A stretch of DNA of 64,000 nt from Blasia pusilla (lineage: Eukaryota): positions 19,902,001 through 19,966,000 of the forward strand of contig CM114271.1 of NCBI GenBank assembly GCA_050084515.1, read 5' to 3'. Position 1 is the stretch's first letter; every line of letters starts with the position of its first letter. Under the pieces are notes generated by a model. That model was given only the letters and a program-made list of their open reading frames with translations. It did no database searches and was not told the origin of the DNA. This document shows, one piece after another, positions 1-64,000 of this stretch. Made by a program: the position numbers and the translations under genes.

Positions 1-398
1 TCAATGGGCATGTTCATGTGGATGGGCAGCCAAAGAGAGAAATGCTATGGCCCCGAGACACTTCTTTGTGGTGAGTCAAATGGATATGTGGAGCCTAGAA
101 GTACCATGATTGTATCCACCAGTAGTTTTGATTGATGCCACTTTCTGCTTGTACTTGAGTGTTCAAACCTCAAGGTGGCTACAAACATCTGTGATTTGTA
201 ACCAAGTGGGTGCTTGCGTTTTGGTTAATTGCCTATGTGCATTTGATAATTAATTGTGGAGTTGTATTTCTGCAGCGGATTTGGCCTTGCGTATTATTCG
301 AGAATTTTGATCGGTCTGTTTTTTCTCTCCAACGAACTGCTCCTTTTATTGCTAATAATTTGACTCTTGAGCTAAGACCTTTCTTTCCTTGGTTTCAG

Positions 399-17900: not shown

Positions 17901-20900
17901 CCATCACCTGCATTTCAAGATTTGTTCATTATCAGAGTTCTACATCAAAACAACACAACACATTATTCGTACTATAATTACATGAGCATGGCAAATCTGA
18001 GTGGAACTAAGTTTGACGGTCATATCCGTCGTGAAATTGAACCAGGTCTGATATTGTGTTTATGAGGTCACCTGTCGAGGCTGATTGATAGCAGGGATAT
18101 TCATGTAATTTTGACGAAGTACATGATACTTCATTACTCTGGCAGTGATGGGAAGCTATAAATGAAACTTGCTCCAAGGTGCACACAACTACATGTGTAT
18201 GTATGTCTATCAGGTCACATTTACCATCCTAAAGATCAGAGGTAGAATGTACCTTTGGGTAATTGATAGACTCCTTGGATGTCATCAAGAGAAAAGTATG
18301 GCAGAAAACAAGTACCTCTTCTAACTTCTTTGACCATAAAGATCTCTTCTTCAAATGCTTGACATGCTTTTGCTGCTGCCTCAAGTCATTCCTGAGAAGA
18401 GCGATGTTGTCTCCTGCAGAAAAGTTTACAAACCAGATCTTTCAGTAATGAATCTTCTTCTAGCCAGTACTTTACAATTGTTAGCAACTGTCCTGTATGC
18501 AAACTTCAAGAGAATTACAAACACAAACCAGCTTCCAAATAATGAAGATCTCAACCGTGGTGATGAGACAACTATAATGTTTGAAGTCTTTGCTCGTTTT
18601 CATAGGACCAACTGATCTCCTCACCTCGATGTGGACCACTGAATAACTCCTCTTCTTGTAGCTTGCGCCGAAGTTCCAACCCAAATCGATCAAGTGCATG
18701 CAATTCATGATACAATTCCTGGCAGGAACACACAGGGTTAGAGATCAACTGTAAGACAAATCGGATACATTGTGCCGTCTATGTTATTCTCTCACACAGG
18801 TCATGCGCAGTAACTTGTCAACTATGTTTAGTGATATTTCCTCAGATATAATGCCCCAAACTGTGATCATTATGACACGTAAGCATGACTAATATTGGCA
18901 TTGCAAAGACACAGAAGCATCTCACAGGTGCACCATGAAATGTGTAGCCATGTCCAAGTTACATACTGCTGTATATTGTGCAAGATTCATCAAATTATGC
19001 ATTTCCATATCAGCTTGCTCTTTACTTTGATGGGGAATGGTTAACTCCTCCGTACCCAACCTGAAAGATTCCAAAGCCATGGTTTGAGATATTGCTCATA
19101 TACAATAGATACTCTACCACTGGCTTCATAGATCAGTTTCCAATGAGCTTTTCATTTTACTAGGATCATCTTCTAGCTCCATGACATTCCTGCACAGTTC
19201 CACTTTGAAAACGAGAAATATTCTTCAACGATGAACCAGAGTGTGGGTGTACTTATTGAATATGCGATCCAGTCGATGCCATTGAGGATCTTGGCAATGA
19301 TTTCCAAATCTAACCACTTCTCCAGCAAAAATTTTAAGTTCCTCCCTAGAGTCATTTCCAACAACACCACTCACATGTCAGATGACAAATCAGTTGTTAC
19401 ATATTTAACTACACCAGAAATCTACATCACATGACTTAACAATCTATATAGGGACCAGTGCTATCCCATCCTCTCAGCTCATACCAATCTCGGCCTCCAC
19501 CAAACATTGCATTTTGCAGCTTCCCTGCATCATTTTGCAACAGGCAAAACCCCTGTAGGGAACTGGAGGCCACGGATCAGATTGTGTGTCAAGTGGTACC
19601 GAGGGTTCCCGTGAATTGCAAAAGGAAAGGCAAGGTGAATCTTTTCAAACCTCTTATCAGCTGAAGCAATCCTCAATAGTTCACCCATATCTTGGGAAAC
19701 TAAACGTTGAACGCCTTCAGATACAAGTGTCTCCTCCTTCAGAACCCTCAAGTCTTCTTCTGACAATGACTGCTTCAGGTTCGAGCCCTTAACTATTGTG
19801 TTGGCAACCTCAAATGCCAAGATGCCTATCTTAATACCTTTGGGTGCCACTCCAGATGCAAATCCACCACCTATATTTGTTAAGGTACTTCCAAATGTAT
19901 CAAGAGCTTCCACCGCCTTTCCAAAACCAGCAGTTCCAGCCCGCCCTATGAGAGAACCCACTTCTGACACCTGGGGACATTATAAGTTGATTAGAAGAGA
20001 CACTGAGACAGCTGCATGGGATATTCCTTCCCAATTCAAGGGAATACAATGCTCTTTAAGAAGAGAAAGACACATGTGTAATTGTCCAACCTGTAACAGA
20101 GCTGCAAAACCCCAAGGCTCGTCATATCAGGCGTGGCCTGTGCCAGGGGAACGAGTAACGTGAATTGAATTCAGTCTATAACTGTTCACCGTACATGGTG
20201 AAATTGTGTACATGAAATTTGAAAAAACAGGTACATACGGTTCAAAAGGAGCAGTACACTCAAACGTTCACCCGAGACTCCTCGGGAAACATCTTGGCAC
20301 GACTTGGTTGAACAATTGCTACCTGTAATTAATTTTGAAAAAGAAAAGACTGAATGTGCAAATCAGTCCGGATGCTGTATCTTTTTGGAATCGGGGGAGT
20401 TGGTTACTGCAATTAAAACGCTGTGGAATTCTTAAAACCACACCAAGTACACACAATGTGACCCTCAGGGCACAGTGCAATTTAGTAGGGCACATTCTCC
20501 CTTCCTTATTATTTATTTAGATAGTAGCACCACACGCACAACGCGATGAGTAGGAAGGGCGACATCGGATGACAAACAAAACCCACCCCCAGACAACAGA
20601 ATCAGATTTTTGATACTTCGGAATAATTAGTGGTATTCCAATCAGTGTTTGTTACGCAGCTACGTACTGAACTTTGAAACTTTCCATCCAATGTTAGCAG
20701 ACTCTTGGGTATTGGCACCGAGTGAACATGTATTTGCCCACGGATCTGTACAATTTTTCATTTGAATTTCTACAACCACGTCTGTTTGCACACTGAAAGA
20801 TAGATGTACTCCTTGACACGGTCCACAGGGTTCATGACGAAGCATCAAATCAACGTATTTGTAATGGCATGGTGATAGAGATGTCGTCCGTCTTACCCTG

Positions 20901-28928: not shown

Positions 28929-31900
28929 TCCTTCGTCATTAAGTGTTAGACAGAGTTTCATTAGTATTAAGTAAGTTGGCTTAGAAAAAAGAGATTCTTA
29001 TGTTTAAACCTCTTTATGGTGCCTCTTTTATGCGGGCCCAACTTTAGGAAAAGGATGTAATAAATAAAAGATGATTTTATAAAAGTAAAGTAGTTGCTTT
29101 AATGAAAAGCAAAAGTAGTCTTGGTTGGTGGCTAGGTTAGTTGGGGTAATTTGGAAAATATCATGTGGGTAAAAGAGGATATTTGGAAGAGATAAGAGGA
29201 AATCTACTTGTGTCAAAATGTGATTGGCTAAGCCTTGAGAGGAAGCCATGTGGCACAAGATAAGATAAGCTCTATTTCGTACTCTTGTGGATCCCTTGTG
29301 AGTATATAAAGAGGAGGGACCTTCAAGGGTTCATCACCTTCTATTCCACATCTTGAGTCTCTCGTGTCTCTCTTGAGTGTATGGCTTTGGGATTGCTTGC
29401 TCTTCCAATGAGAGTGGATCACCCCTCTTGGGAGAGTAACTTGCCCATGGTCTATTCTTCGAGAGGTTTCTAGAATGTGTGTGTGTGTGTGTGTGGGGAT
29501 GAGAGGTTTGTCACCATAGAGGAGTTTAGTCATACTAAAATAGCGGATGTTTTGGCTTGTTACTTTCCCAATGAGAGTGGATTACCCCTCTTGGGAGAAT
29601 AACTCCGCCAAAACCCATTCTTGAGGAGAGTAGAGAATGTCTGTCAAGCATGGATAGGGGTGGAGCACGAGCTGTGCCCGACTTTCCTTTCCTCAATCCT
29701 TACCATGTCAAGGTACTCTTTGTAGATAGGCACTGGTTTACTCGCTATTTAGTTTATCACTTTGGGGAGGCGTTCATGAACCAGGTCATGCAATCTCCAA
29801 CTCCGGTGGTTCTTCCTATCGTCACATATGGAAGGACATGGGATTGTACTTTGTATGTCCTTATATAGCGATCCATGGATGTCAATAGGCCTGGTCAAGT
29901 AGGATTTAACACTAGTTGTGCTATCTTCCTCGTGTACAAGCGTAAAATAGTTTATAGGGATTTTATAATTAGGAATTTTGGGATCCGATGTTATGAAGAA
30001 GTGATCGCCTCGGCACTTCCATTTGTGATACCTATCGTGAGAGAATGGAGAGTGTACATCATAATTTTATATTGAAAAAGGAGAACTTATTAGAGAGTTC
30101 ACCTTGCATCGACCGCATCTACCGCAACTAGAAGGCCTGCCCTTGCTCGAAGAAAGATTCTCGACACCACAGCGTTAAGGAGAGGTTTAGTTATATGTGA
30201 GATGGTCATCACAGTGTAGGGTCCCAATATTGCTTCCATGCTCAAATCTCTAACATATTCTCCTACAAAAAATAAGCACAGTGAGGAAACCGCTCCTCGG
30301 GAGGAAACACTCAGAGGAAGGTTTCTGGGAGTGGTTCAAGAATACCACTAGATGAACTATCCCAAACCCCCATCCCAGATGTTCTTTTTGGATGGGATAT
30401 TGCTCTAATTCCCTAGTAGATTAGTATTGTTGATTGCTACATCTTCACTTTAGTGGAGCATTTTGTGTTATAGATTGTTGCACGATAGAATTAATCCGCT
30501 CTACATGGCGGAGCACCAAGAGAAAAAGGCAATCGTGGAGCGTATGGAGAAGTCAGAGGTAGGCCTCTCCCAGGCACATGGAGATGGTCTACGACCATCT
30601 TTAGTTTCACTTTCGTGAAGAGCAAGCAAGATACACATACAATGGCTCTAAGGATAGGGCCAACTATGGTTGATGAGGTAGCAATAGCTCAAGTCATGGG
30701 GCAAGGGCAAACCAAATCAAGGAGGAAGATTATGTTGATTCAATCTAAATATCCAAAAACGTAAAAGGCAAAGAAGTTTCGTTGCTTGATTGTTCGGTAG
30801 GTGTGCAAGTAGTGCATTTTTGTGCTTGATGTGCAAAATGGGGCTAGCATTTTTCAAACTACATGCAGATGATGATGAGTAGGTTCACTTCAGATCATCA
30901 TCATTGTATGACACCATCAAAATGTGAGACAATGTTGGGGGCTTCAAAGTTGTAAGAGAAGCAAGAAGCACAAGTGTTGGCTACAACAACACCCTAGACT
31001 ATGACATAGCTTCATGGATGATCATATTACAAAGGGAGTTGGCAGCAGTAGGAGACCTATTGATAGAGCAGGTATAAAAATAACAATTTGTGGAGGCATG
31101 TCGTTCGTCTCATGCATCAAAGAGAAATCATACCTTTGGTGAGTTCTCTAGAGAAGAGGCATTCAGATATGCCTTTGTAAGTATCTCTTACCTCATAGCA
31201 CCCTAGAAATGTAGGGTTAGTTAGTTTATATTTTACAACAATTACTTAACTATGTGGGTACCTTGTGTAGTTTACAAGGTGTTGCCATGGGGAGTTCCCA
31301 AGTCCTAAGGCTATGGATAATGTGCAACGGGTCCAAAAGACGAGAGGATGTCTTTATTGATCATGATATCTTAGCATTGATGGCAGGTTCCTAAAACTCT
31401 AGTCCTAATGTATTTTCTTCCATTAAGTTATTTTCAATATAGATACCAACTCCCATTGCCTATATGGTGCAACATGACATGTTGTAGCTTGGTTAACCAA
31501 ATGTAGAGGAGTTTCTTGATCGAAAATGGATATGGATGGAAATGTGGATTGGATCGGATCTATATACGTCATCAAATCGACTTGTAGGAGGAGAAAACCA
31601 CTTGGATGTTGGCTCCTACTATGAGGTTGAGGAGGACCAGGATAAGGAGATCTAGCTAAGAGAGCATCCAGATGCTCTAAGGCATATTAGGAGATCATCG
31701 TCGGATAGTGCACCTAGTGGATGCACGAGGCATGTCTATGGTAGGCATCGCCACACACGATTTAGTAGAAGTCGCCCCATCAGAACGACTACTTCCAAAA
31801 AACAAACACATACAACGAAATTGGCTATTGGAACGTCTTCAAGAACTAGATCTTCTATAGATCTAGTGTGGCCCTTCATGAATGGCACATTAGGTGCACA

Positions 31901-31962
31901 TCATTGATGTAGGTAAGAGTTTCAAAACTAGTGTCAATGTCATTGCATAAGGGATTTTATAC

Positions 31963-31967
<5 letters not shown>

Positions 31968-32020
<53 letters not shown>
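31968..32020. repeat. (CT)n microsatellite
   Basis: Direct reading; abuts the left end of retroelement copy 2. Confidence 0.95.
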
Positions 32021-32023
<3 letters not shown>

Positions 32024-32508
32024 GTGCGCATACACATCGTTATCACGGAATACACACACAAACACACAGGATCCCATGCTAACTCATGGCATCCAAACAA
32101 CAAGACAAGAAGTACTAAAATATCTCTAATAAAAGTAAGATCCAATCTTTGTCTACACCATCTCACACCATAGCTCTCAAAGGTGTGCACTCTCTCTCAT
32201 GTCAAACCAAACCCACTCTCCTAATGAGAAGTTTGGGTTACACTCACAAGGCAACGGAGCATAGCTCCGCCGCCTTATGCCAAGAGGTTCAACCCCTCTC
32301 CCAAGCTCTCTTCATGGTAACCTATTCTCCCAAGTCACCTCCTTGGCTCTTGACCTGATGTAGGAGGTCAAGGGCCACTTACCAAAAATATAAAGTCGAT
32401 CACATATTCAAAATGGTACTTACCTAAAATAGTAAGTTCCTCAATATGGCTCCAAATGAGCCGAAACGAAGGGAAAACATGCTCTCTCAATTTTTCAAGG
32501 CCTCAACA
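32021..32508 (-). mobile_element. 3' terminal repeat of retroelement copy 2: partial A' (~32130-32508) plus terminal B' (32021-~32130)
   Basis: 32160-32508 matches 43559-43949 in the same orientation (with a ~45-bp deletion) and the reverse complement of ~59300-59715. The minus-strand end ...gtgtatgcgcacaac resembles the copy-1 terminus ...gtatgcgcacgaca. Confidence 0.8.
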
Positions 32509-34065
32509 TGGACACCTGGACATGGTGGTAGAGCACCACCAACAGCCAGAGGAGATGGAACAAGAACACCAGAGTCGGAACTTCTCTCACGCATCGATCA
32601 GTTGGAGCAGAGGATTGTTGCCATGACGATGATACAGCTTAGGGAAGGCACGGAGTGCGAGCAGCTAGTGTGACTCCAGCTTCTATCTCTTACCCTGAGT
32701 TATGTATAGTGCAGCCCAAGTTGAGGCAGCTGTAGTGGTGACTCGGGGTGCTGGGAGAGGCACCGAGCCATTGAGAGGTGGAGTTGAGATGGACCCACTA
32801 GAGGGGACCGATGGGCGGCAGGCCAGTGTTCCATAGTCATTCACATTGTCGGAGGCACTACACACACCATCGATGGTGCCTCGACGACCAGCGGTGCCTA
32901 TAGCTCAGGCACTTAGGTCGGCGTCACGAGGGGTTGGAGTGACAACTCCTATGCCGGCTCGAGTGGAGTCACCGTCGACCACAGTGTTGGAGGTGGCCAC
33001 TAGAGTGAGTCAGACTCCACTATTTTCCGCCATAGAGTTGGCGACGTTGGGAGTTGGACCAGTTGAGGTGTTATGGCTGGCCGCCACGTTGTGTGAGCGT
33101 GGAGAGGTGACTGCTTCTTGTTTAGAGGTAGTTGAGGAGGTGGTGGACTTGCCCTCAAAGCCGCTGCTCGGGACGTTCCCCATAGAGTCATAGCATGTGG
33201 CAGCGGCGAAGTTAGTAGATATGCCAGCTCAACCGGCCATAGAGCGAGCAGTGGTGACACCTGGAGTAGTGTTAATGGATAACCGAGTTGGAGTATTTTG
33301 ATTGGTTAGTCCGACGGGGATAGTATACCACTCGTAGCTCGTCCTACTTGATTCGGGAGCGCAACCCTTGATGTTAGGGAAGGCGGCGTGTTTAGTGTTG
33401 GGGTTACGGAAGGCTGATATTGAGCCTTGTCCCTTCCAGATAAAGACCTCAATCGGGGGCGTGTCATCCACGCAGTATCTGACTTGACAGGAGATAGTTG
33501 TCAGAGTCCAGCCAGAGCATGCGACGGATAGTGCTATGGTGCGCACACGTGCGATTACAACACCAGCTCAGTCGTACGATGTGTTGGTGGGGAGTACATT
33601 GTTATATCCCCTAGGATTCATCATTGACTTCTGGGAGGAGACCGTTGCTTATCGGCCAAGGTGGAGTTCAGGTGAAGACCGGATGATGCAGTTACCCGTG
33701 CAATTTGCGGGATGAGGTGGTCGATCACAAGGCGAGTCTATGACCACGTTGGCAGCTTTCACAGGTAGTGTTAGCTGGCCAGGAGAGTTGTTGGAGGGGA
33801 ACGCACATGCAGAGGATGTCCCAGTAGCGGATAGTTCCACGAAGAGACAGGCCATGACGGTTATCTCTTCCCATATTGGCGAGACCTCTTCACCATTATG
33901 GGATACGACTCGAGAGCTATAGAGGAGTGCCGACGACCTCGTGAGGCAGGCGTGGAGTCATGCTTTTATCCCGGAGCAGCGAGAGTCACGTGGCGATCGG
34001 GCTCTTGTAGTGGAGACGTTGACCCCACTAGATACCACCCCCGCCGTGTGGCAGTGCCTGAGGAG

Positions 34066-35020
34066 GGTGTTAGGGTGTTAGATCTCTTCGGAGGGATTAG
34101 CACCGGATTGGCTGCAGTATTGCAGGCGGGCATACGGGTGCATCAATACCTTTATGTGGAGAGAGATGAGATCGCATGGCGAGTATCATTACGTCACGTG
34201 GCGAGATTGGTCCAGAGGTATCCTGAGTTGTTGCCGGTAGCTGTAGTACTGGGATATCAGCATACACTACCCGCCGACATCTCTTTGGTGGGTGCGCAGG
34301 ATCTGGATAGAGTTGGCACCATTCATTTGGTGATTCCTGGATGGCCATGTCAGGGTCATTCATCAGCTGGCCGAGGATTTGGATTGCAGGAACCGAGGTC
34401 AGGGATGTTTTGGGAGATGCTACGAGTAGTTCAACACTTGCATGAGAGTCAGACATGTTCTCCAATCTACATTTTGGAGAACGTGCCATTTTTTGGAGAC
34501 ACTCGTGCACGTGTGATGACAAATGTGCATCAGGTGAGGTCTTGGTTGGGACCTGCTGTGTTATTAGATGCGGCAAGAGTTGGATCACATGCCCATCGTC
34601 CATGACTGTGGTGGTCAAACCTGATACCATGAGAGGTACTGAGTCGAGCATACGATGGAGTCCAGAGAGCACCACATCTCACAGTGGATGATATTTTGGG
34701 CTCAGGGCGTCGATCTCAGGTGGTGACACGGGATGATAGACCACCGTTCGCCATGGCCAATAGGGTGGGGGATTTGAGGGCAGCCTTACCTACGTTGGTG
34801 AGCTTCCCAGCATCCCATGCCTTTCGTCAAGGAGGGCCAGGCATGATTTGGGATGAGGTGACCGAAGCATTGGAGGAGCCTATAGCAGATGAGCGCGAGC
34901 GCGCCATGGGGTTCGCTACCGGTACTACGGCCGTGCTAGGGATGACTGAGGCATCCCGGAGATAGGTGTTGGGGCAGGCGATGGACCTCAACTGTCTCAC
35001 ATGGATAGTCAGCCTAGGTA
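34066..35020 (+). pseudogene. DNMT3-like DNA (cytosine-5) methyltransferase domain inside the retrotransposon pol polyprotein, with in-frame stops
   Basis: Motif I VLDLFGGIS (34075), II YVE, III DI, IV GWPCQ (catalytic PC at 34345-34350), VI ENV (34477), VIII AHRP*LWWSNL (34591), IX ERERAMGF, X RR*VLGQAM. Same reading frame as the downstream RT fragments (33898, 34684, 35320, 35686, 35890 and 36103 are all in frame). Confidence 0.9.
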
Positions 35021-35319
35021 TGACTGAGCAGAGATGGATGTGAGTGTCATCCATGCCGTCACGTCCACGAGTTGGACCATTGCCTACAGTGTCTGTACAT
35101 GCATTGGATGGGGGCGAGAGGAGGAGAGATAGGCACCCATGGACTTCCTGGGACGTCGTTTGAGCAGAGAGTGCAAAGGCGGCCAGAGTAGCACATGTTC
35201 ATTTTTTGGATGTAGAGCATGGTGTAGGAGGTCAGAATGGAGTGGTTGTTGCGGAGATGGCTAGGGTTGCTACATAGCAACCAAAGCCGCAGGTTGCGTC
35301 CTTTCTGAGTGAGGTCACG

Positions 35320-36640
35320 ATGGAGACTTGGGAGCCTATGATAGGTCTCAAGTTGATAGGAGGAGAGCGACGGCAAGTTCATAGGTTTCTGAGAGGGCAT
35401 GTCAATTTTTTTGCCTTCAATATGAGAGACTTGGGTACGCTGAAGGGTCCCTGGATACGGATTGAGTTGGCTAGTGATACGCCAATCTTTCGTCGACCCT
35501 ATAGGTATTCCGATATGGAGCGAGCCTTGATTCAGAGCAAGAGTCAGGACTTGTTGGAGGTAGGACTTGTGGAGTTATCACATGGGGAGTATGCATCTGC
35601 CACAATCATGCCGGCGAAGAAGGATATGTATGGCAATTGGACGGATAGGCGGATATGTGGAGATTACCGTCCTATCAACCGATAGATGAGGTCAGATCGG
35701 TACGCCATGCCTACTCTTGAGGAGATCTTTGATGCGGTAGGGCATGCAAAGATTTTCAGTACTTTAGATCTCCGTGATGGCTATCATCAGCTTCCTATTA
35801 GGTTGGAGGACAGGGAGAAGATAGCATTATGGGGGATAGATCAGTTCGGGAGAGATTGCTTGTATCATTAGCGGTTCTTACCATTTGGGTTGAAGAACGC
35901 GCCTGCAGAGTTTGAGAGAGTGATGGATAGGATTCTAGCTGGCTTGGATTTTGTACGATGTTACATAGATGATATTCTTATCTTCAGTTCCAGGGTTGAG
36001 GAGCATGAGCGAAACTTGGAGGAGGTGTTTCGGCGATTGCAATTACATGGACTGAAGTTACATCCATGCAAGTGCAGATTCTTTCAGGAGTAGATTGAGT
36101 ACTTGGGACACACCATATACCCGAGTGGGTTAGGCATTCAGCAGACGAAGGTAGAGTCTGTTGCGCAGATTCCACGCCCTACAGATGTGAGTCGAGTCCG
36201 AGCATTTTCTGGGCTGGCGAACTTCTATCGACGATATGTCAAGGGTTTTAGTGCGATCGCAAAGTCTTTGATCTTGTTGACGAGACTTGATCGGGTTTGG
36301 TTGTGGGGAGATGATCAGGAGCGAGCATTTCAGGAGCTCAAGGACATATTGACCTCCTCACCCATTTTACAGAGACCAGTTAGGGGTCGCCCATTCTAGT
36401 TACATACGGATTGGAGCATGTTGGGTCTAGGAGCAGTGCTTACTCAGAGGGATGACGAGGGAGAGTGCTTGGCTGCAGTGTGGGCCGTGGCACATTTCAG
36501 GTGTTATTTATTCGGCAACCCTTTCACACTTATCACCGATCATCAGCCGTTGAGGTGGTTGATGGAGTCCGACAAGCTTACGAAAAGCTTGTGAGATGGG
36601 CTCTATTACTACAGGAGTATGAGCTGGTTCATAGGCCAGG
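35320..36640 (+). pseudogene. Reverse transcriptase / RNase H of retroelement copy 1
   Basis: ORF fragments 35320-35685, 35686-35871, 35890-36093 and 36103-36399 with RT motifs including YIDD; RNase H carries a 72-bp deletion relative to copy 2. Confidence 0.92.
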
Positions 36641-37059
36641 TCGGCTAAAAAGGATGCGGATGGGTTGCGTCGTAACCCATGTCCGAGTCAAAGAGACGAC
36701 ACAGGAGCTCGATGGCACGGAGAGAGTGATGAGGAGATGGTGCCCGGTTGGCATGCATCTGCCTATCTTTGTTGGTTGACTATGGCAGGTCAGCCATAGG
36801 TGATGACTCTAGTGGTGGGGTTGGATGATGAGTCTTTGGATCCATAGGTTAGTGAGGAGGCAACAGATGGTCGTGATATCCATGACGACGTGGAGGTTGT
36901 GGAGTTCTTGTGCACTGGCGTCATAGCGAGTACAGTGAGTGCTAGGGAGCGGGATCGGATCCTACAGAGAGCCAGGAGGTTCAGGTGGGAGGGGACTCAC
37001 ATTTTGCGGGTCTGGGGAGATGGTAGGATACGAGTGGTACCTCATCCTTCCCAGAGAGC

Positions 37060-38317
37060 ACGTGTAGTGCAACATGCCCATGAGGAGTTGTGATATTTTG
37101 GAGTAAAGCGTACTTACAACTTACTTCAAGTTCAGTATTGGTGGCGCGACATGCATACTGGGGTACAGTAGTTTGTGGCCAGATGTATGGTATGTGACAG
37201 AGTGCGAGCATCCTTCAATGCTCCCACTCCGCAATTACATCCTTTGCCGATTATGGGTTTAGATTATCGGTGGAGTTTAGACTTTGGGGGACCTTTGCCA
37301 TTGACGGGGCATCATCATAGGTACGTGTTGGTCATGATGGAGCATTTCTCCAAGTGGATAGAGTTGGTGGCACTACTAGATAAGGCGAGCAAGGGAACAG
37401 CTTATGCATTTCTAGATCGTGTGCTTAGTCACTTTGGTGCACCGGCGGAGGTGTTAACTGACCAGGGTACAGAAGTCAGGGGAGAGTTTCAAGCCTTGTG
37501 TGATCATGCGCTGATAGATCACTATACCACGTCCAGAGATCATCCTGAGGCGGATGGGTTGGCGGAGAGAGTGGTACAGACGGTGAAGAGAGGATTGCGC
37601 AAGTATGGCTTGCAGCGGGGACAGTTGAGGGAGTAGGACCTATAGTTTCCATGGTTGGCTATGGGTTATCATTTTAGTTGGCAGGCATCCTTGGCGTCAT
37701 TTTCACCGTATTTTTTGCTCTTTGGGAGAGAGCCAGATTTACATGCAACGATTCGACGTGACATGAAGGAGGTGTTAGATCTTGATGATCCAAATGTGTG
37801 GGTACAAGCATGTTCTTAGAGGGCGGAGGTTTTTTGTAGAGTTATGCCTATGGCCTTTGAGAACTTAGCTATTGCCCAGCATAGAGATACATTGAGGTAC
37901 GCGACCATTCGTGAAGGAGGTTATCGTCCAGGGATTAGGAGTTTTCATCTTGGAGATTACGTGTATTTATAGCAGGCGGCACCCACGACACTAGATGTCA
38001 CTACAGGGCACAAGATCCTACGTGTGCGCGAGGTATTACCGTCCGGAGTCCTCATGTTGGAGGCATAGGATGGTATGGTTTGGAAGGATCATGTGCGCAA
38101 TTGTGCGCAATGTCATCTTTCGAACGTAGATGGGATGGTGGATCCGAGCTTGGAAGTGGTACCTGCAGGCTTGAGGTGTATGTTGTGCGGATCTACGAGG
38201 GGTGCAGCCATCATGTTGGTATGTGATGGTTGTTCTCGAGGGTGGCATATGTCATGTCTGAACCCCCCTCTTGATGTGGTTCCCACGAGACGATGGATGT
38301 GTCCGAGATGTGTATAG
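37060..38317 (+). pseudogene. DDE (rve) integrase with C-terminal PHD finger
   Basis: HAHEEL...CMVC zinc-binding region, WSLDFGGPLP, EHFSKW, VLTDQGTE, HPEADGLAERVVQTVK. PHD: CMLC...CDGC...WHMSC...WMCPRC. Confidence 0.9.
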
Positions 38318-38393
38318 GGTAGTAGGTCATGTTAAAGAGATGTGATGGTTTCTATCTAGAGTTGGGGGGATCCAACTTCCAGCTAGGAGGGCG

Positions 38394-39153
38394 GTTGTGT
38401 GATCTCCATGTATATGTATGAGTTGATTTTTGTACATGTGTGGATCGATCCGTGTTTAGGGAAGATCGGTGTTGTGTGGTGTAGATGTGACCAACAATAT
38501 ATGTTGTGTAGGGGTATGTATGCGCACGACAGCTGTCACATCTGAGTAGCCGATAGGCCAAGATCTATTATGGATAGGGCGTAGGAGCCAGCGGACTATC
38601 TTGAGTGTAACTTTGTCCCACGGTGTCGGATGAGGTTGAGGATAGGTCCATTGTGTCAGGAACGTCGTTTCTAGAAACTTTCATGTTGAGGTCTTTCACA
38701 GTCGGATGACTTGTTGACCAGGTCATCCGCCCTTGGTAACCTGTGCGTGCAGGTTACCAAGGGGAGGGCTATTTTTAGAGAAAGAGCCTTTTGGCTCTTC
38801 CCAACCCTATATAAGAGAGGAAGGTGGCTTTTCTAAGCCATCTTTCTCATGTTGGGCTGTTGGAGCACCTCTCTTGTATATGTGTGAGATAGAAATAGGG
38901 TGCTAGCGTCCGGATTCCTTGATAGCACAGGGTGGACGAGGCTCGATATGCCGATGTAGATTGAGGAGTGGAGTTTTAGGCCAGGTGTGCCGTTTTTACT
39001 ACTCTTTATTTTTTGTTGTGTAATCTCCATGTATATGTATGAGTTGATTTTTGTACATGTGTGGATCGACCCGTGTGTGGGAAAGATCAGTGTTGTGTGG
39101 TGTAGATGTGACCAACGATGTATGTTGTGTAGTGATATGTATGCGTCACGACA
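38394..39153 (+). repeat. 3' terminal structure of copy 1: B1 (38394-38531), gc spacer, A (38534-39014, starts TGTCAC, TATA-like ctatataag near 38807), B2 (39015-39153, ends CA)
   Basis: ~138-bp direct repeat gttgtgt(g/a)atctccatgtatatgtatgag...atgcg(t)cacgaca at a 621-bp offset; junction gacagctgtc. Confidence 0.85.
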
Positions 39154-44176
<5,023 letters not shown>

Positions 44177-47100
44177 ATTTCTAATTTTTTAATGGAAATA
44201 TTTTTGCAAGCATGAAATTAAACCCAATTTTTTTCTAAAACAATTGCAAGTTGTTCGCAAGTTGGATTTACAATCTGCTCTCATTGCAACCCCTAAACTG
44301 AAAAATTTTCCAATCCGATGCAAGTTTTTTGCAAGCCAATTACAATGCATTTGCAAGTAGATTATGAGTGTTGTAAAACATGGCTTTCAAGTCAAATCAC
44401 TAACTATAAGTCAAATTCTCAAAGAGTAAGTGAGTATGTCAATTTTGCAAGTGTTGCTTTCGCAAAGTTACGATTGAATTAGGGCTACATTGCAAGGAAG
44501 GTACGGCTCTTGAGACTTGCAAAGTTGTTGCAAATATAGTAGTGCCACCAATTCCATGTAAAGATGAGAGTGCACCATTCTTCTTAATTGCAAAGAAAGC
44601 AATTGAAAGGAAGATTAAGAAGGCTTCATCACATGATCTATTGGATGAGCCTATAGCTTTTCCGAGTGTTTTCCTCCCACAATGCTGAGCCAAGGCTAAT
44701 CTACCATACTCCTTCAATTTACCATGTTGTATGAAGGAAATTATCTTCACATTCATGGTTCCATAGACAAAAAAAGAGGCTTATCTTCCTTTACTTATTC
44801 TAGATATTTTACACAATACTCGTCTTGTGTAAAACTCAAATTCTTTCCACTAAAAAGTACCCTAGCATGCATCTTAAATCTTTGCTTCAAGAGGCTCAAT
44901 CACATCCATGTTATCATTTTTGGAACAATCTACTTCTTCTAGATGCTTATTGGTTTGTTACCATTTTGTATGAAACCCTAAGTCTACAAGAGACTTATGT
45001 TTCTTATTAGAATTAGTGTCCATTGGGGTTGCTAAATATGTAGGATCTATAATTTTTTCCTTCAAAACACTTACAAATGTATTGATGTTGGGGTGTAAAC
45101 AAGAAGAAAATTCACTTTGAGTCAAGATGACTACATTGGTATAGAATGATACAAACAATGAAATGGAGCGAATTTTAAAATAGCACAGTTGCCAATAATC
45201 AACAATAACTATATGAGAAATTTTTTGTAGAACTGGAAAAATGGACCAAAACTAGTGACTTGCAAACTTTCAAGACAAGGTGAACAATGGGAGCATAGTT
45301 GCAAAAGTTGTTGTAGAAATGGAGCAAGTTGAAAACTAAGGGGATAAGAACAATCCTAGAAAAAAATTGGTAGACCCTCAAAATTTATCTAAGTCTTGTG
45401 CAAAAGCAATGGAGCGGAACAACAAACATTGTGGCAAAGTCTGGGAGGGACTCAAGTTCACTCAACGAGGTACACTTTGTCACTCAAGGATGTAGGTTAT
45501 ATAGGAGGAGCAAAAGCATGATCAACTATGACAAACCCTCGAAGAAACCTCAGGTCACTTAATGTGGAATTTGGTCGTACATAAAAATTTAGAAGATGCT
45601 TGTAGTTCCTGAAGTGCAAGCTCTTAAAGATTTTGTATAAATTTTTTTAAAGAAGCAACAAAGAAGAGCATACCAACAAAACTTTGCCCCGCTTGCGATT
45701 GTGATAGTATGTCGCGGAGTTTAGCATACCCAAAAAACTTATGAGAAGAACTTTAGAAGGCAAAGTAGAGACAATCACAACGGAATGGTCATAAGAGCTG
45801 CGAAGCTTGCGTGGAGCCATTGAATGAGATATAGTACTCATGCATTGTTGCGTGATTTGAATCTAGACCAAGAATGGGAGTTGCAAGAAGCAAGAGAACC
45901 TTAAGGCAACAAGAAGAGAGATGTCCAAAAAATGAGGAAAATTGGAAGGGGAGGGAGACCACCCCTCCCAACTTTCTGTGAGTCTAGTTGCGGATGAGTT
46001 GCTTATGACCCAGCCTTGACATGAAGAACGCAACCAGCGTTGCCCTCAACCCACCTGTCCTACTTTCAATGGCAAGATTGGGCCACACAAGGCCTAACTG
46101 GCCTTTAAATGCAACCCCTCCCCCATCCCCGGATTGGTCCGACCACTACCTTGTAAACTCGACTTCTTTTGGCACTTAGAAACCTTGTCGGGTAAATTAC
46201 CAACTTCTTACATCCCATGCAAGTTTTTCTACTATCGAAGTAAAATGCTCTCATCCTCCTTCTGGATTTCCCTCTATCCCAACAGTCTCCCCTCCTAAAG
46301 TTCATTTCTCTTCGCCAGAAAATACCTTGTTGGAACCAACACCCTTGATAAGGAATGCATGTTTTGTCCAAGCCTTGGTCTAACCTTCCTCTCATGGCAT
46401 TATTAGGCTTCTAGTACGAAGTTTTAGTTGGATGTTAGTGTATATGTATATGCGTATCAACAATGTACGCTATTTAATGATATATTTGTGCATCAAAGAG
46501 AATCCCTTTCATGTGTTTGTGACTTGACTATACACTAGTATTAAGGATTTGGATAAAAATCCAATCATTCATTAAAATAAATTAAAAAAAAAATCTCAAT
46601 GGGAATCCCAAGAAAAAATGCTTGAATCTTGATATGAAGATGCATGTCAAATGTAATGTCATCATCACATATACGCAAGGTGTCCTATGGGACCCTAAGC
46701 TCTCTAGGCATTACATTAGAGAAACTTGAGCTTCACCCTTCTATACCAAGTGGGATGAAGATGGAATCTACAACTAAGGATGCCCTAAAAATATCCCTTC
46801 CACTCACTTGTCAATCGGCCTCCTTGTAACATTGGCTTGGTATAAACTATGGTCCAACTCCAAAAACCTCCCACTTTAAAGGATCCAACAAGGCAAGTGC
46901 AATGAGAGCTCATGATCATTTTATTTTTTTGAAACAAAATAAAGGAATGCCCATTATACTTAACATGTGAGAGGCAATGGAAAAACCTAGTTGAAGTTCC
47001 AAAATCTTCACTTCCTAAATTGCCATATAAGAAGTTGCTCAAGCTACACGCTATATCTTTCGTCGTCTTTGAGGTGAATGGACTTTTATGGGAAGATGGT

Positions 47101-59210: not shown

Positions 59211-62200
59211 TGTCACGTCTCTTAGGATAGATCGGTGAGATCTAGTAGAGCGCCTTCGTGAGTAGCGGAGGATAGGCTCAGTAGGTCAAAGATGACCTGC
59301 TGAGGCCCCGGGAAACTTGAGAGAGCAGGTTTCCCCTTCGTTTCGGCTCATTTGGAGCCATATTTAGGAATTTACTATTTTAGGTAAGTACCATTTTTAG
59401 TATGTGCTCGACTTTCTATTTTTGTGGCCCTTGACCTCCTACATCAGGTCAGGAGCCAAGGAGGTGACTTGGGAGCATAGATTACCATGGAGAGAGCTTG
59501 GGAGAGGGGAGGGGTATACCTCAAGGAGAGACAGCTTGAGAGCTCATTCTCTCTTTGTTGAACCTCTTGGCATAAGACGGCGGAGCTATGGTCCCTTGCC
59601 TTGTGAGTGTAACCCAAGCCTCTCATTAGGAGAGTGGGTTTGGTTTGACGTGTGAGTGAGTGCACACCTTTGAGAGCTATGGTGTGAGATGATGGAGAGA
59701 GAGCTTGGATCTTATTTTACAAAGAGAGAATGAGAGAGTGAGAGAGCTTCATGGGGGAGCTCATTGGTCACTTGTTTTTTTTTGCAAGTTGGGGACTGTG
59801 TTCCCCATTCAACGGCTCATGGGAGTGCTCACCGGAGCAAGGGATGCTTTGATTGTTCTTTGCATTTGCCGATTTTTCGTGTGGAAGAGTGGCGCATTGA
59901 AGCGATGCCCAATTTCTGATAGGGATTGATTATGGGGTAGGTTGCCCCATACTGGTGCTCTTGGAAGCACCATGTAGCTTGCTAATTTGTATTTTTACAG
60001 GTTTTACATTTTCGTTGGGAGAAATCAGCGCAAAAGCACTACCAAATTTTGTGTAGGAGAAAGAGATATTGGGCTTTATGACAGTCCCTATAAGTTTTTA
60101 CAAGAATGTTTGATTCCAAATATTTTTTGACACTATTGTAGATCGTGAAGCTATGCATCTTGTGCAACAAACGATGCGCAATTTGGAGTTGCGAGTAAAA
60201 AGTTATGGTCAATCTTGCAAAACTACCATTGCTAGGCGATTTCTATGGTTAAATTGTTCAAACCCTTAACCAACCGCCACGACGGCGGCGGCATCCGTCG
60301 CGTCATAGTCATCGTCAACAATCAACGTTCAACCATCACAATAAACGGTCAACTATCACTGTCACCGGACGGCCATCACCATCAACGGTCAACCGTCACC
60401 GTCAACGTTCCACAGTCCGTTGTCCACCCTTTGGTTGTTATTGCCGCCGTTACGGAGTGGAGGGTCTTCCACGATGTTCGTTGATTCTATGACTTACGTC
60501 GCCACCACTTACTTTGTTTTGGGTGCCACCATCATCAAAGTTTTGTCATCAACCAGTCATGGCAAATGACAGTACGGGAGGAGTATGACTTGCTGATTGG
60601 AGGAGTTGTCTCCACGACCGAGTTGGGGTCGAGATTTGCAGTTGCTGAGGAGCGACATTGACATGTGTTCAGGTTACCCATTCTGGTCCATTACCCTACA
60701 CGCATGAGGATTTCCGGGATTTGGGTAGTTTATTTGGGGATATTGGATTGTGTGGATGTTGAGAGCATCATTTATGTATGTGGTTTAGGGGACATAGACC
60801 TATGTGGGATGTCCGAAGTTGAGGGTAGTTTTTCGATGAGATGATAGTCTGGTCGATTTCCCGCACCACGCCGCTTGTTGCCGCACGTTACGTCTCAAGG
60901 AGGGAGAGTGTAGATCGAGTGCCGTATGTTTGGGATGAGTGATTGAGGGATTGCTCATGAGGTTGAGAGTGATTGGGTGAGAGGGTCACGAGGGTCATCA
61001 CGGCGTCCGTTCGGGACTTTGAGAGGCGAGGTGGTGAATCTGAGAGTAGCTCTAGAGGTTTTACGCGGAGTGGCGCAAGGTTCCGAGGGTCTCCACGTGA
61101 GGGACCACCTCAACCTCCTTCTATGTCATCGTCAAATGAGGAGGAGGGTGTAGAGGAGTTTGTGAGCACATTGTCACACATTGTGAGTGGTCATACGAGT
61201 TGGGCGTACGAGATGGACGACCGGGATAGAGGAACGCATAGGTTTTCAGGTGCAGTAGGCACGATTTCATAGCAGAGTTTAGGAGTTGGTGCGACTTCCA
61301 GCGAGCTAGGAACTCTAGAGAGTTCAACCCGTTTACACCATGGAACGATATGTTCCAGTATTTTGAGGGGGTGCCCATGGACGATTACCATGAGTTCTCC
61401 CACATATATACCCAGGAGATTGAGGCATGGCAACTCTACTATGATCCACACTATGTATCATGGACAGAGCCATTCCTAGATGAGGAGGAGGAGTCAGGAG
61501 AGGCTACTTCCTCTTCCACTAGTGATGTTTTAGGAGGGGTCACTCACATTGGAGCAGTTGCATCATCTAGTCGGGTTCGTCTGAGGTTCAACCCCATGGT
61601 TGAGTTCTTCGCTGAGTTGAGGGCCAGCTCCCAAGGGGTATGGACGGAGAAGTTGCGAAGCATCCACGACTTCTAGAGGCGCCCAGGTGAGAGTTTGCGT
61701 GAGGCTTACACTCGCTTGCGCGGGTTGATCAACGTCACTCGAGGGGTGATAGAGGCTCAGGCTATCCAATCATGGTACGCGATGTTGGATCGGACCCTGC
61801 GAACACGGATGCGGGAGGGGGTACTTCTTATGAACACCTCCCCTACATTGAGAGATGTTTTTAGGACCACCAAGAACATTGAGCGCAACATGGTGGAGGA
61901 GAGCGTAGCCACCATGGATTCTGGGCGAGAGCACTCACGATTGTCTGTACCACATATGCAACAATGTGGACTCCGAGATAGGTTGACTGTGGCACCACGA
62001 TCTTAGGGAGGATACCGTAAGGCCATGCCACATAGACGTGCACCTTCATATGTGGCTCAACAACAGCCGCCTACTATTACTTGTTGGTTATTTGGTAGAG
62101 CCCATCATCAGCGCGATTGCACTCGTCAAGATCATGGACGTGTGCCTCAGCATGGAGGAGGAGATGGTGCTGCACCAGGAGGTTATCAGTGTGACTATTG

Positions 62201-64000
62201 TCAGAGGTATGGTCATACACGCTCTAGGTGTTTCAATTTACATCCTGAGTTACGTCCGGACCAAGGGCAGAGAGGGCACTAGAGCGAGTAGCCGGCTCGG
62301 GTGGGCCTAGAGATCATGCACCGGGTGGTTCCGTTGGGGGACGAGGAGTTGGAGTTGCCCAACATGGTGGTGAAGCTGCCCGTGGAGGAGGTAGAGTACC
62401 ACCACCTAGACGCGGCGAGGGAGACGTTGGACATGAGGCTGGGATGGCTGCTCAGATACAGCAGTTACAAGAGCAGATTGTTGCAATAGCATTGAGGTTT
62501 CCCGATGCCGGATTCATGGCATCGACATCATATGGAGCAGCCAGAGATATGGAGGATCCTGGTTGGATGTGCGGGGTTGCCCAGATGGAGGCCGCCGCAG
62601 TTGTGACGCGTGGAGCAGCGGTAGAGTTGGATCCACATCGAGGGGAAGCTAGAAAAAATAGGCTAGGCTTCCTTAGTTTTCACGTTGTCCGAAGCGATGA
62701 GGACCCCATCGATGGGTCCTCATCAAAGTTCCTGGAGAGTTGGTGATGTTGTTGGTGTGTAGGCACGGAGGGCAATGGGAGAAGCGAGTGGGACGACTCC
62801 TATTGTTGATGCTCATGAGGGGCATGTGTCGAGCACGTTGTTGGGGGCGACCACCATTGTGTACCGCACTCCTTTATTTTCTGCTTCCGATGTTATGACG
62901 TTGGGGGGTATGCTTGCCAAGGCTTTTTGGCTAGCTGCTTCACTATGTGAGCGCCGAGTTGGAGTTCCTACATCACGTTCAGAGGTGATTGCAGAGGAGG
63001 TGATGGACCTGCCCTTGGAGCGGATGCTCGGGCCATCCACGTCAGATTCATGGCAGGTTGCGGCTGTTAGGATGGTGGAGATGCCCGCTAGACGCGCGAT
63101 AGGGCTTGCCATGGCTTCTCCTGATGTTGTGTTGCTGGATAACCGAGGAGAGGTCTTCCAATTGGTGAGTCTTAGAGATAGAGCTTTTAGTCTGCAACAC
63201 GTCTTGTTGGATTTAGGAGCGCAACCCCTGATGTTGGGGAAAGCGTCATTGAGAGGATTGGGCTTGACGAGAGCCGATGTGGAGCGTTGTCCATTCTGGA
63301 TACAGACATGCTTGGGTGGAGCGAGTACCACACAGTATATCACCCGGCAGGAGGTTGTGGTGAGGATTCTCCGGGATATCCTACAGATGAGTCCGTGGTG
63401 CGAGCCAAGGCGATAGTGACTGATGTAGAGTCCTACGACGTCTTGGTTGGTGGAGTAGTGTTATACTCGATGGGGTTTGCCCTGGGTTATTGGGAGGAGT
63501 AAGCGTCCTACAGACCAGGATGGCAGTTAGGTGATGGGCGCCTTAGCTCATTACCTGTTCGATTCACAAGTGTAATAATCGAGCAACGGCCACGAGAGGT
63601 GGCGACCTTAGCAGCACTTAGCAGTGCCATCACTTGGCCTAGTGATTTGATTGAGGGATATGTCCATGCAGAGGATACTCCCATTCCTGATATTACTATG
63701 GAGAGGAGTGTTATGGTAGCCGCATCATTCCGTGGAGGAGAGGTGCAATTGTGGGGCTCGATTGAGGAGCTTCGACGATTGGTAGATGAGCACGTGCAGA
63801 CCGTGTGAAGCAAGGCGTTTTCACCGGAGCGTGATGGGGCTGAGGAACTCGAGATAGCAGGGAGTGCTACGATGACACCCTTGGATACCACACCCATTGT
63901 GTGGTGTATCCGGGAGGAGAGTATTTGAGTGTTAGATCTCTTTGGAGGGATTAGCACCGGGTTAGCTGCTCTTATGCAGGCAAGAGTGCAAGTGCAGCAG
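59211..64000 (+). mobile_element. Ty3/Gypsy-type retrotransposon copy 3 (same subfamily as copy 2; runs off the window): 5' repeat A', long leader, gag, protease, start of DNMT domain
   Basis: Starts TGTCACGTCTCTTAGG at 59211. Gag fragments at ~61000-62300 with CDYCQRYGHTRSRC knuckle; VLLDLGAQP protease near 63201; DNMT motif I VLDLFGGISTGLAA at 63929-63970. Colinear with the reverse complement of copy 2. Confidence 0.92.

Follow-up and report, generated by a model that had tools for sequence, protein, structure and literature searches.

A PHD finger closing the integrase of a dead Gypsy-DNMT3 retrotransposon in Blasia pusilla, with a candidate tethering role in active copies

A stretch of 64,000 nucleotides from the genome of Blasia pusilla (NCBI GenBank assembly GCA_050084515.1, contig CM114271.1, positions 19,902,001 to 19,966,000 of the forward strand), hereafter called the window and numbered from its first letter, harbors a retrotransposon whose integrase (INT) ends in a PHD finger of the C4HC3 type. 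The element, called copy A, is almost certainly a dead, 5'-truncated long terminal repeat (LTR) retrotransposon of the Ty3/gypsy group, nested in an older relative. Taken as a whole, the observations reported below are best explained by a PHD finger that belongs to a dead Gypsy-DNMT3 element and that would tether integration in the active copies of the family, an explanation that we regard as fairly probable.

The peptide quoted in a preliminary description of this DNA, which had been made from the sequence alone and which claimed a complete C4HC3 PHD finger, is the exact translation of the plus strand at 38177-38311, and the Pfam search bore this claim out. Indeed, the peptide matches the PHD profile PF00628 with an E-value of 6.9e-12 (score 45.6 bits, cut-off 24) over its full length (profile positions 1-47 of 47), all eight zinc ligands of the window finger are present with the canonical C4HC3 spacing, and a Pfam scan of the finger at E <= 0.01 yielded PHD-type zinc-finger families only. 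The minus strand over the same positions is interrupted by stops in all three frames. When the frame of the finger is read upstream through stops, it gives Pfam matches to Integrase_H2C2 (E 3.5e-13) and rve (E 2.5e-13); the finger is therefore in frame with the integrase and forms its last domain. Similarly, in intact relatives the PHD lies in the frame of the integrase, either in the second open reading frame (ORF2) of loci L001 and L002 or in the single ORF of proteins P0182 and P0316, in agreement with the preliminary description. The latter had also placed the finger where chromoviruses carry their chromodomain, and rightly so, since it occupies the very C-terminus of a Ty3/gypsy integrase, as does the chromodomain of the chromovirus protein P0327 (residues 2051-2102 of 2119). 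Pfam scans found no Chromo domain in the element of the window, where its place is taken by the PHD.

Copy A extends on the plus strand from about 32522 to 39168 and encodes a pre-protease/protease (PR) region, a DNMT, a reverse transcriptase (RT), an RNase H (RH), the integrase and the PHD, in that order; the succession PR-RT-RNaseH-INT, with H2C2 and rve, is that of Ty3/gypsy elements. Both the 5' terminal repeat and gag are absent, no Pfam match was obtained for the protease at E 0.001, and the RNase H has an internal deletion near 36455 that leaves it about 22 residues shorter than that of copy B, the older relative. The coding path of copy A contains 26 stops, of which one is a native TAG and about 25 were acquired, as well as at least three frame changes. 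Nine stops fall in 36761-38314, and the 438-codon integrase-PHD stretch (37001-38314) has seven in frame (one TGA and six TAG). The finger had been called intact, which is true of its 45 open codons, but the stretch to which it belongs is broken by these seven stops and the copy is a pseudogene. Given the local density of stops, a stretch of 45 codons has a probability of about 0.49 of escaping them, and the intactness of the finger in copy A is thus uninformative on function. Its open frame results here from luck and not from maintenance, and the finger is inert in this particular copy.

A pseudogene in which a stop-free stretch of that length is expected half the time could also be read in another way, namely that the C4HC3 pattern is a chance arrangement of cysteines or a relic that is functionless in every copy. 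The relatives of the element argue against this reading, as does the Pfam E-value given above. A HMMER scan with the 438-residue INT-PHD stretch as query produced 45277 matches at E <= 0.001, including 598 at E <= 1e-30. Most of the best 150 relatives cover the query up to the finger, and 137 of these 150, which share less than 50% mutual identity, exhibit the full C4HC3 motif at the homologous position. More broadly, an integrase followed by the motif was found in 249 of the 273 proteins collected, and the eight ligands together with one tryptophan are invariant in 20 of 20 proteins taken from the window's subclade. Between the intact copies L001 and L002, the ratio of non-synonymous to synonymous substitution rates (dN/dS) of the finger is 0.044, with 19 synonymous and 7 non-synonymous differences and a saturated dS; it is 0.12 between L001 and L003, and 0.06-0.08 for ORF2 as a whole (0.059 for L001 and L002). 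The PHD is thus a family trait and the finger is under purifying selection in the family, in which intact and transcribed ORFs occur. The conservation of the ligands and the dN/dS of the finger refute the chance or relic reading at the family level, and we give it next to no credence.

The element belongs to a large clade of the green lineage. Among the Chlorophyceae, the named sources of relatives are Haematococcus, Pleodorina, Volvox, Tetrabaena, Scenedesmus and Tetradesmus, whereas the group closest to the window has a single named source, the charophyte Coleochaete scutata. The transcriptome of C. scutata contains a complete RT-RH-INT-PHD ORF that is 66% identical to the window stretch, and another intact and transcribed RT-RH-INT-PHD relative is found in Tetradesmus deserticola. 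Two gene models of Haematococcus lacustris (P0152 and P0001) join, in one annotated protein, the A and B domains of retinoblastoma to a pair of integrase cores and a PHD, which is most likely a run-on of the gene model into retrotransposon insertions.

When compared with the sequences of the PDB, the finger had 79 matches at E <= 0.01, of which 60 were listed. The nearest solved PHD fingers among the 60 matches listed are those of CHD4 (PHD2), PHF12, DPF3 (PHD2), KMT2C/D, KDM5A/B (PHD1) and PHF21A, further ones being UHRF1/2, ATXR5, KAT6A/B, BAZ2A/B and AIRE. The finger matches these readers of the histone H3 tail over its whole length, including the MLLCD strand, the Gly-aromatic-His and the P..G.W.C end, with E-values of 1e-14 to 1e-8. 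Four of the structures (4q6f, 5t8r, 3t6r and 5hh7) have unmodified H3 peptides in their titles, and several of the matched entries are presumably readers of the unmodified H3 tail. An AlphaFold (AF2) model of 37721-38314, built from an alignment of 41 rows (mean pLDDT 82.3), consists of helices, an SH3-like barrel with strands at residues 80-124, and then the finger (residues about 150-198), for which the interleaved two-zinc PHD fold is predicted. Foldseek placed the finger of the model on BHC80, ATXR5-H3, DPF3, BAZ2A/B and CHD5 PHD2 with root-mean-square deviations (rmsd) of 1.2-2.0 A over 45-49 columns, the title of the BAZ2A match naming a histone peptide with unmodified H3K4. The model as a whole matched the Tudor-PHD cassettes of PHF1, MTF2 and UHRF1 with poor rmsd. 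UHRF1 with the unmodified H3 N-terminal tail was a further match of the finger, at 8.8 A over 65 columns. By sequence and by predicted structure, the finger appears nearest to readers of the unmodified H3 tail.

PHD fingers with non-histone partners also exist, and the finger could recognize a nucleic acid or else a host factor involved in chromatin or import, or form a small E3-like module, thereby helping nuclear entry or the stability of the integration complex while reading no chromatin state. The presence of the UHRF1 TTD-PHD with Stella peptides among the top fold matches would suit such a ligand, and so would one feature of the window's subclade. In the majority type of the family, described below, an acidic stretch precedes the MLLCD strand (P in 120, D in 114, D in 91 and E in 91 of 206 sequences); the window's subclade lacks it as a conserved feature. 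However, the whole-length matches of the finger are to H3-tail readers, with an rmsd below 2 A, and its Pfam families are all of PHD type, and we hold a non-histone ligand to be improbable.

The second module of interest is the DNMT3-like domain. When the DNMT stretch of the window was used as a phmmer query, 137 of the 273 family proteins proved to contain a homologous region, with E-values as low as 2.9e-78, and the DNMT of the intact relative L002 has its best PDB matches in DNMT3A, DNMT3B and DNMT3C (E ~2e-07), ahead of M.HaeIII and M.HhaI. Among the 131 proteins with both RT and INT, the DNMT was detected in 85, the PHD in 127 and both in 83. In addition, 37 of the RT+INT ORFs lacking the DNMT start less than 170 residues before the RT and are too short to contain it, whereas all five window-type proteins with over 280 residues ahead of the RT have it, as do 23 of the 26 metagenome loci that extend 1.6 kb or more beyond the RT on its upstream side (the misses being L020, L037 and L048). 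Exceptions among the 244 tips of a tree of the INT-PHD region are limited to four tips classified as 'noDNMT' and three as 'gapNoHit'. The co-occurrence of PHD and DNMT across family members, raised in the preliminary description, was thus recovered both in proteins and in loci, and the reader and writer modules travel together across a large clade of the green lineage. The DNMT is constrained across the family. In an alignment of 110 DNMT sequences, 107 retain the catalytic cysteine and 106-107 the E and the N of motif VI, while motif IV reads ECQ in 58 and the canonical PCQ in 21, the window having PCQ. The DNMT regions of the volvocine members of the family are weak (Pleodorina, E 4e-23; Volvox reticuliferus, E 5e-15; none detected in Tetrabaena) and possibly represent decaying enzymes.

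Two arrangements of these modules are found. In the majority, chlorophyte-type architecture, RT-RH-DNMT-INT-PHD is extended by a tail of some 300 residues in which no Pfam domain is recognized (for example P0066, P0015 and P0199); this type counts 79 RT-DNMT-INT-PHD and 46 DNMT-INT-PHD proteins. The window, or streptophyte, type is DNMT-RT-RH-INT-PHD, the finger lying at most 20 residues from the end (for example P0182 and P0227); in the window's subclade, a tail of at most 20 amino acids past the PHD was found in 32 of 43 RT-INT-PHD proteins and in all three DNMT-RT-INT-PHD proteins. In the INT-PHD tree (FastTree, 244 tips, midpoint root, no outgroup), the window type forms one clade of 47 tips (support 0.998) nested among the majority type, which suggests that the DNMT moved within the polyprotein and that the tail was lost.

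In the window type, the writer and the reader are usually separated by a stop codon. The DNMT and RT-INT-PHD of L001, L002, L011, L073 and L009 share one frame that is broken by a single TAG (at positions 4661, 5083, 4509, 9938 and 848, respectively), so that five of the six loci whose DNMT-RT junction is covered by one or two open frames have the TAG, as has the window itself. It is followed by CAR YYA in four of these five loci (L001, L002, L011 and L073), a context that the window fits, whereas L009 has TAG GGG and then a G+C-rich inverted repeat. We take TAG CAR YYA to be the read-through context of tobamovirus type, and the TAG is predicted from sequence to be a leaky stop forming the native boundary between gag-PR-DNMT and RT-RH-INT-PHD. 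Reader and writer would then be part of one polyprotein only after read-through. Their assignment to one mobile polyprotein in the preliminary description consequently holds for L006, P0182 and P0316, in which DNMT and Pol form one frame open throughout, but not for the five loci and the window in which the TAG is conserved. In most of the window's subclade, the writer would be made in an abundant gag-PR-DNMT product and the reader in a rarer read-through Pol, the DNMT acting apart from the PHD-bearing integrase and not as a fused reader-writer enzyme.

The co-occurrence of the two modules would also suit another role for the finger, which might serve the DNMT3-like enzyme of the element itself, as the ADD does in animal DNMT3. 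According to this alternative, unmethylated H3K4 would be sensed and the enzyme thereby licensed to methylate the new copy or its neighborhood, the targeting of integration being secondary. The pairing in 83 of 131 proteins and 23 of 26 loci, the direct succession of DNMT and INT-PHD in the majority type and the constraint on the DNMT are in its favor, and so is the likeness of the finger to solved PHD fingers that recognize the unmodified H3 tail, for which the ADD is likewise specific. However, about 1100 residues and usually one stop codon lie between DNMT and PHD in the window's subclade, and the few PHD-bearing tips without detectable DNMT indicate that the finger has been kept without the enzyme. 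Moreover, no ADD of DNMT3 or ATRX is present among the 60 PDB matches listed, and the analogy with the ADD drawn in the preliminary description has to be abandoned as far as the finger itself is concerned, which is not ADD-like. A coupling of reader and writer thus seems to us an unlikely primary role.

We lean, by a small measure, towards a tethering of integration to H3K4-unmethylated chromatin, a role proposed from sequence likeness and by analogy with chromoviruses. In active copies, the finger would bind the N-terminal tail of H3, most likely with K4 unmethylated, and the complex of integrase and cDNA would thereby be tethered to nucleosomes away from promoters marked by H3K4me3; the finger would be the counterpart of the chromodomain of chromoviruses. 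A PHD-bearing element of Chlamydomonas reinhardtii, Gypsy-7a_cRei, inserts in intergenic regions at 2.6 times the expected rate, and its authors suggest that the PHD steers insertion (Craig et al., 2023, PMC9940879). Several points weigh against this role. The bias of Gypsy-7a_cRei may, according to the same authors, reflect selection in culture (PMC9940879). As regards the finger itself, its H3 ligand is proposed from likeness alone, and the acidic stretch, which in known readers contacts H3K4me0 and R2, has been poorly conserved in the window's subclade and is missing in the window finger, so that specificity may differ in this subclade. A physical coupling with the enzyme would be possible in the majority type, where the DNMT stands directly before INT-PHD, and the members in which DNMT and Pol form one open frame do not conform to the separation of reader and writer proposed above. 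Finally, the window offers three copies and one nesting, which do not make statistics; the nesting had been presented as consistent with the targeting of chromatin rich in transposable elements (TEs), but one such event is no evidence of targeting.

A broader proposal would be that an old clade, shared by plants and by green algae, both chlorophyte and streptophyte, has preserved an H3-tail reader on its integrase together with a DNMT3-like writer over long evolutionary time, as an autonomous module that picks H3K4-unmethylated chromatin for insertion and methylates the new DNA of the element. In one subclade the writer, encoded upstream of a leaky UAG, would be produced about as abundantly as Gag; it would have moved at least once in the polyprotein, the pairing being kept throughout. 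We consider this proposal as a whole rather doubtful. Three features of the family are worth following up, namely the clade-wide pairing of PHD and DNMT, the moved DNMT and the leaky TAG. Retrotransposons bearing chromatin readers or methylases illustrate the ways in which mobile DNA copes with silencing by the host or turns it to its own use, and the family bears on two open issues, namely the reason for the presence of a DNMT in retrotransposons and the question whether integration is steered by PHD fingers as it is by chromodomains.

The nesting itself, claimed in the preliminary description, is upheld by repeats, flanks and junction reads. Copy B, on the minus strand, is interrupted by copy A at ~39154-39170, and its two terminal repeats (32123-32521 and 43551-43962) are 79% alike in the same orientation. 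The same (CT)n microsatellite borders both outer ends, which indicates that copy B was inserted into a dinucleotide repeat, a single case; the matching repeats and flanks show that copy B spans 32021-44032, with copy A inside it. At 39154 exactly, RNA reads of related copies part from the window (23 to 38 reads per run). Copy B has terminal repeats at both ends whereas copy A has 3' repeats only, and one later deletion can explain the loss both of the INT-PHD of copy B and of the 5' repeat and gag of copy A. The B1 and B2 repeats of copy A are 89.6% alike over 154 nt, and the complete layout A1-coding-B1-A2-B2 is present in the relatives L041 (1768-2074 and 10378-10971) and L026 (1676-1975 and 10238-10805); the A1 repeat of copy A is gone with the 5' deletion. 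The order of these split repeats is that of DIRS elements, yet the element carries a DDE integrase. A third copy, C, stops before the integrase and, as copy B is without INT-PHD, the window contains only one PHD. Copies B and C differ by 212 transitions and 78 transversions. The sense strands of 33790-38314, 41000-43405 (minus strand) and 60817-63228 show an excess of G over C (skew 0.21-0.25), which is weaker in intact relatives (0.11-0.17) and, being present there too, is not simply an effect of decay. The features of the three copies are given in Table 1.

Table 1. Coordinates of the retrotransposon copies and of their parts in the window
Feature	Position	Strand	Basis or remark
Left-hand flank of copy B, (CT)n microsatellite	31967..32020	.	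Partner at 44032-44120
Copy B, 3' terminal repeat	32021..32521	-	A2-type part 32123-32521, plus ~100 nt to the flank
Copy A, aspartic protease active-site motif LLDSGA	33344..33361	+	Read in frame 32501
Copy A, DNMT3-like cytosine-5 methyltransferase domain	34051..35040	+	PF00145, E 4e-07; motifs I, IV (PCQ), VI (ENV) and X readable
Copy A, conserved in-frame TAG followed by CAA CCA, between DNMT and RT	35275..35283	+	Aligned with the single TAG of L001, L002, L011 and L073
Copy A, RT and RNase H, in a frame other than INT-PHD	35656..36585	+	RVT_1 (E 1.4e-27), RT_RNaseH and RT_RNaseH_2 (Pfam)
Copy A, integrase, decayed	36761..38176	+	H2C2 ~37046-37210, rve ~37265-37546, SH3-like barrel ~37958-38092
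Copy A, PHD finger of C4HC3 type, final domain of Pol	38177..38311	+	Pfam PF00628, 8/8 ligands
Copy A, TAG stop closing the Pol frame	38315..38317	+	One Val codon past the finger
Copy A, 3' terminal repeats B1-A2-B2	B1 38394-38546, A2 38547-39014, B2 39015-39168	+	blastn self-comparison
Copy B, older host element	39169..44032	-	5' repeat 43551-44032, gag with zinc knuckle, PR, mostly deleted DNMT, RT, RNase H
Copy C, of the family of copy B	59215..64000	+	86.6% alike to copy B over 2.4 kb; leaves the window inside the DNMT region

Three RNA runs of the same organism placed 166 to 241 reads on 31500-44500. These reads are mostly 95-99% alike to the window (212 of 229 in run X21) and about half or more of them lie only partly on the stretch, indicating that they derive mainly from other copies; if the libraries are stranded in the usual way, their direction fits sense transcripts of copies A and B. 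They differ from the window before 36455-36457, the site of the RNase H deletion, and their depth in the bin with the finger is 0.2-1.7. Inside the finger, position 38211 has a letter other than that of the window in 4/5 and 5/5 RNA reads of two runs, and in most of the DNA contig depth, and the window copy is thus a minority variant at this position. One DNA run placed 135213 contig pieces on 31500-44500, a depth that is not a copy number and that points to a highly repeated family.

Outside the three copies, a 656-codon frame on the minus strand (10592-12559) is without Pfam match; within it, at 10727-11194, a 78-nt unit occurs five to six times in tandem in a G+C-rich stretch. An open frame at 19533-19979 on the minus strand matches Pfam DUF3475 (E 5.2e-23) and is the only clear piece of a host gene among the ORFs scanned, probably an exon of a plant gene, as we take DUF3475 to be a plant-specific domain. 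The abundance of TAG stops and the uneven G+C content could have suggested a fungal origin with RIP-like mutation, but this was rejected in view of the DUF3475 frame and of a charophyte as closest named relative; the host is a streptophyte.

Both modules of the element had been published separately, and the element of the window is a dead member of the published Gypsy-DNMT3 kind. PHD fingers are known in retrotransposons (Kapitonov & Jurka, 2003; Perez-Alegre and colleagues, 2005, as cited in PMC6673714), they are a common accessory domain of Chlamydomonas TEs (PMC9940879, PMC8557442), and among reader domains, fusion to TE domains is most frequent for PHD and Chromo (bioRxiv 10.1101/2021.11.30.470311). 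Similarly, DNMT3 is known from a streptophyte Gypsy (PMC5890265, PMC12344493). KnitGypsy-Dnmt3 of Klebsormidium nitens has an intronless DNMT3-type domain in its coding region, described as part of the Pol ORF, and repeats in the layout A-coding-B-A-B (de Mendoza et al., 2018, PMC5890265). By description, the element of the window resembles it in the DNMT3-type domain of its coding region and in its B1-A2-B2 repeats, the full layout being that of L041 and L026, but the conserved TAG groups the window-type DNMT with gag-PR and not with Pol. The main text and the text supplement of PMC5890265 contain no mention of a PHD, although figure 4c, outside the search, may show the finger; with this reservation, a full-text search of the accessible literature found no published description of a PHD-DNMT3 pairing in a retrotransposon.

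Gypsy-7a_cRei, introduced above, encodes a Gag-Pol with a PHD and has LTRs composed of sub-parts and a very long internal region of 11.3 kb (Craig et al., 2023, PMC9940879). It is a green-algal Gypsy that, like the element of the window, bears a PHD, a likeness of description that does not imply membership in the clade; unlike in the window, no DNMT appears among the domains listed in the accessible part of that article. In the EpiLTRs of Cymbomonas and Euglena, the reader is a chromodomain, which is accompanied by a Dam-like adenine methylase and by an enzyme related to DNMT4 (bioRxiv 10.64898/2026.05.21.726589). To the extent of the text available, they likewise are LTR elements that join a histone reader to a DNA methyltransferase, whereas the family of the window combines a PHD with a DNMT3-like enzyme, and Pfam scans of the window element and its relatives found no adenine methylase. 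The same preprint (2026) lists the known TE-borne DNMTs, a pairing of PHD and DNMT3 not being named in its available text.

Among cellular proteins, the PHD fingers that read the unmodified H3 tail differ from the finger of the window in being regulators of the cell and in that the latter is without the acidic stretch. The ADD of DNMT3 and ATRX is alike by analogy only, as a zinc-finger reader linked to a DNMT3-type enzyme; the finger of the window has no GATA-like part and is borne by an integrase, not by a methyltransferase. The closest parallel in position is provided by chromoviruses such as MAGGY which, as far as the consulted sources describe them, also carry a histone-tail reader at the C-terminus of the integrase, the PHD of the window being C-terminal to an SH3-like barrel. 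The RT, RNase H and integrase core of P0175, a PHD element, are collinear with those of the chromovirus protein P0327 (42% and 32% identity). Chromoviruses nevertheless use a chromodomain and not a PHD, and the mark expected for the PHD would, by analogy, be unmodified H3K4 in place of H3K9me.

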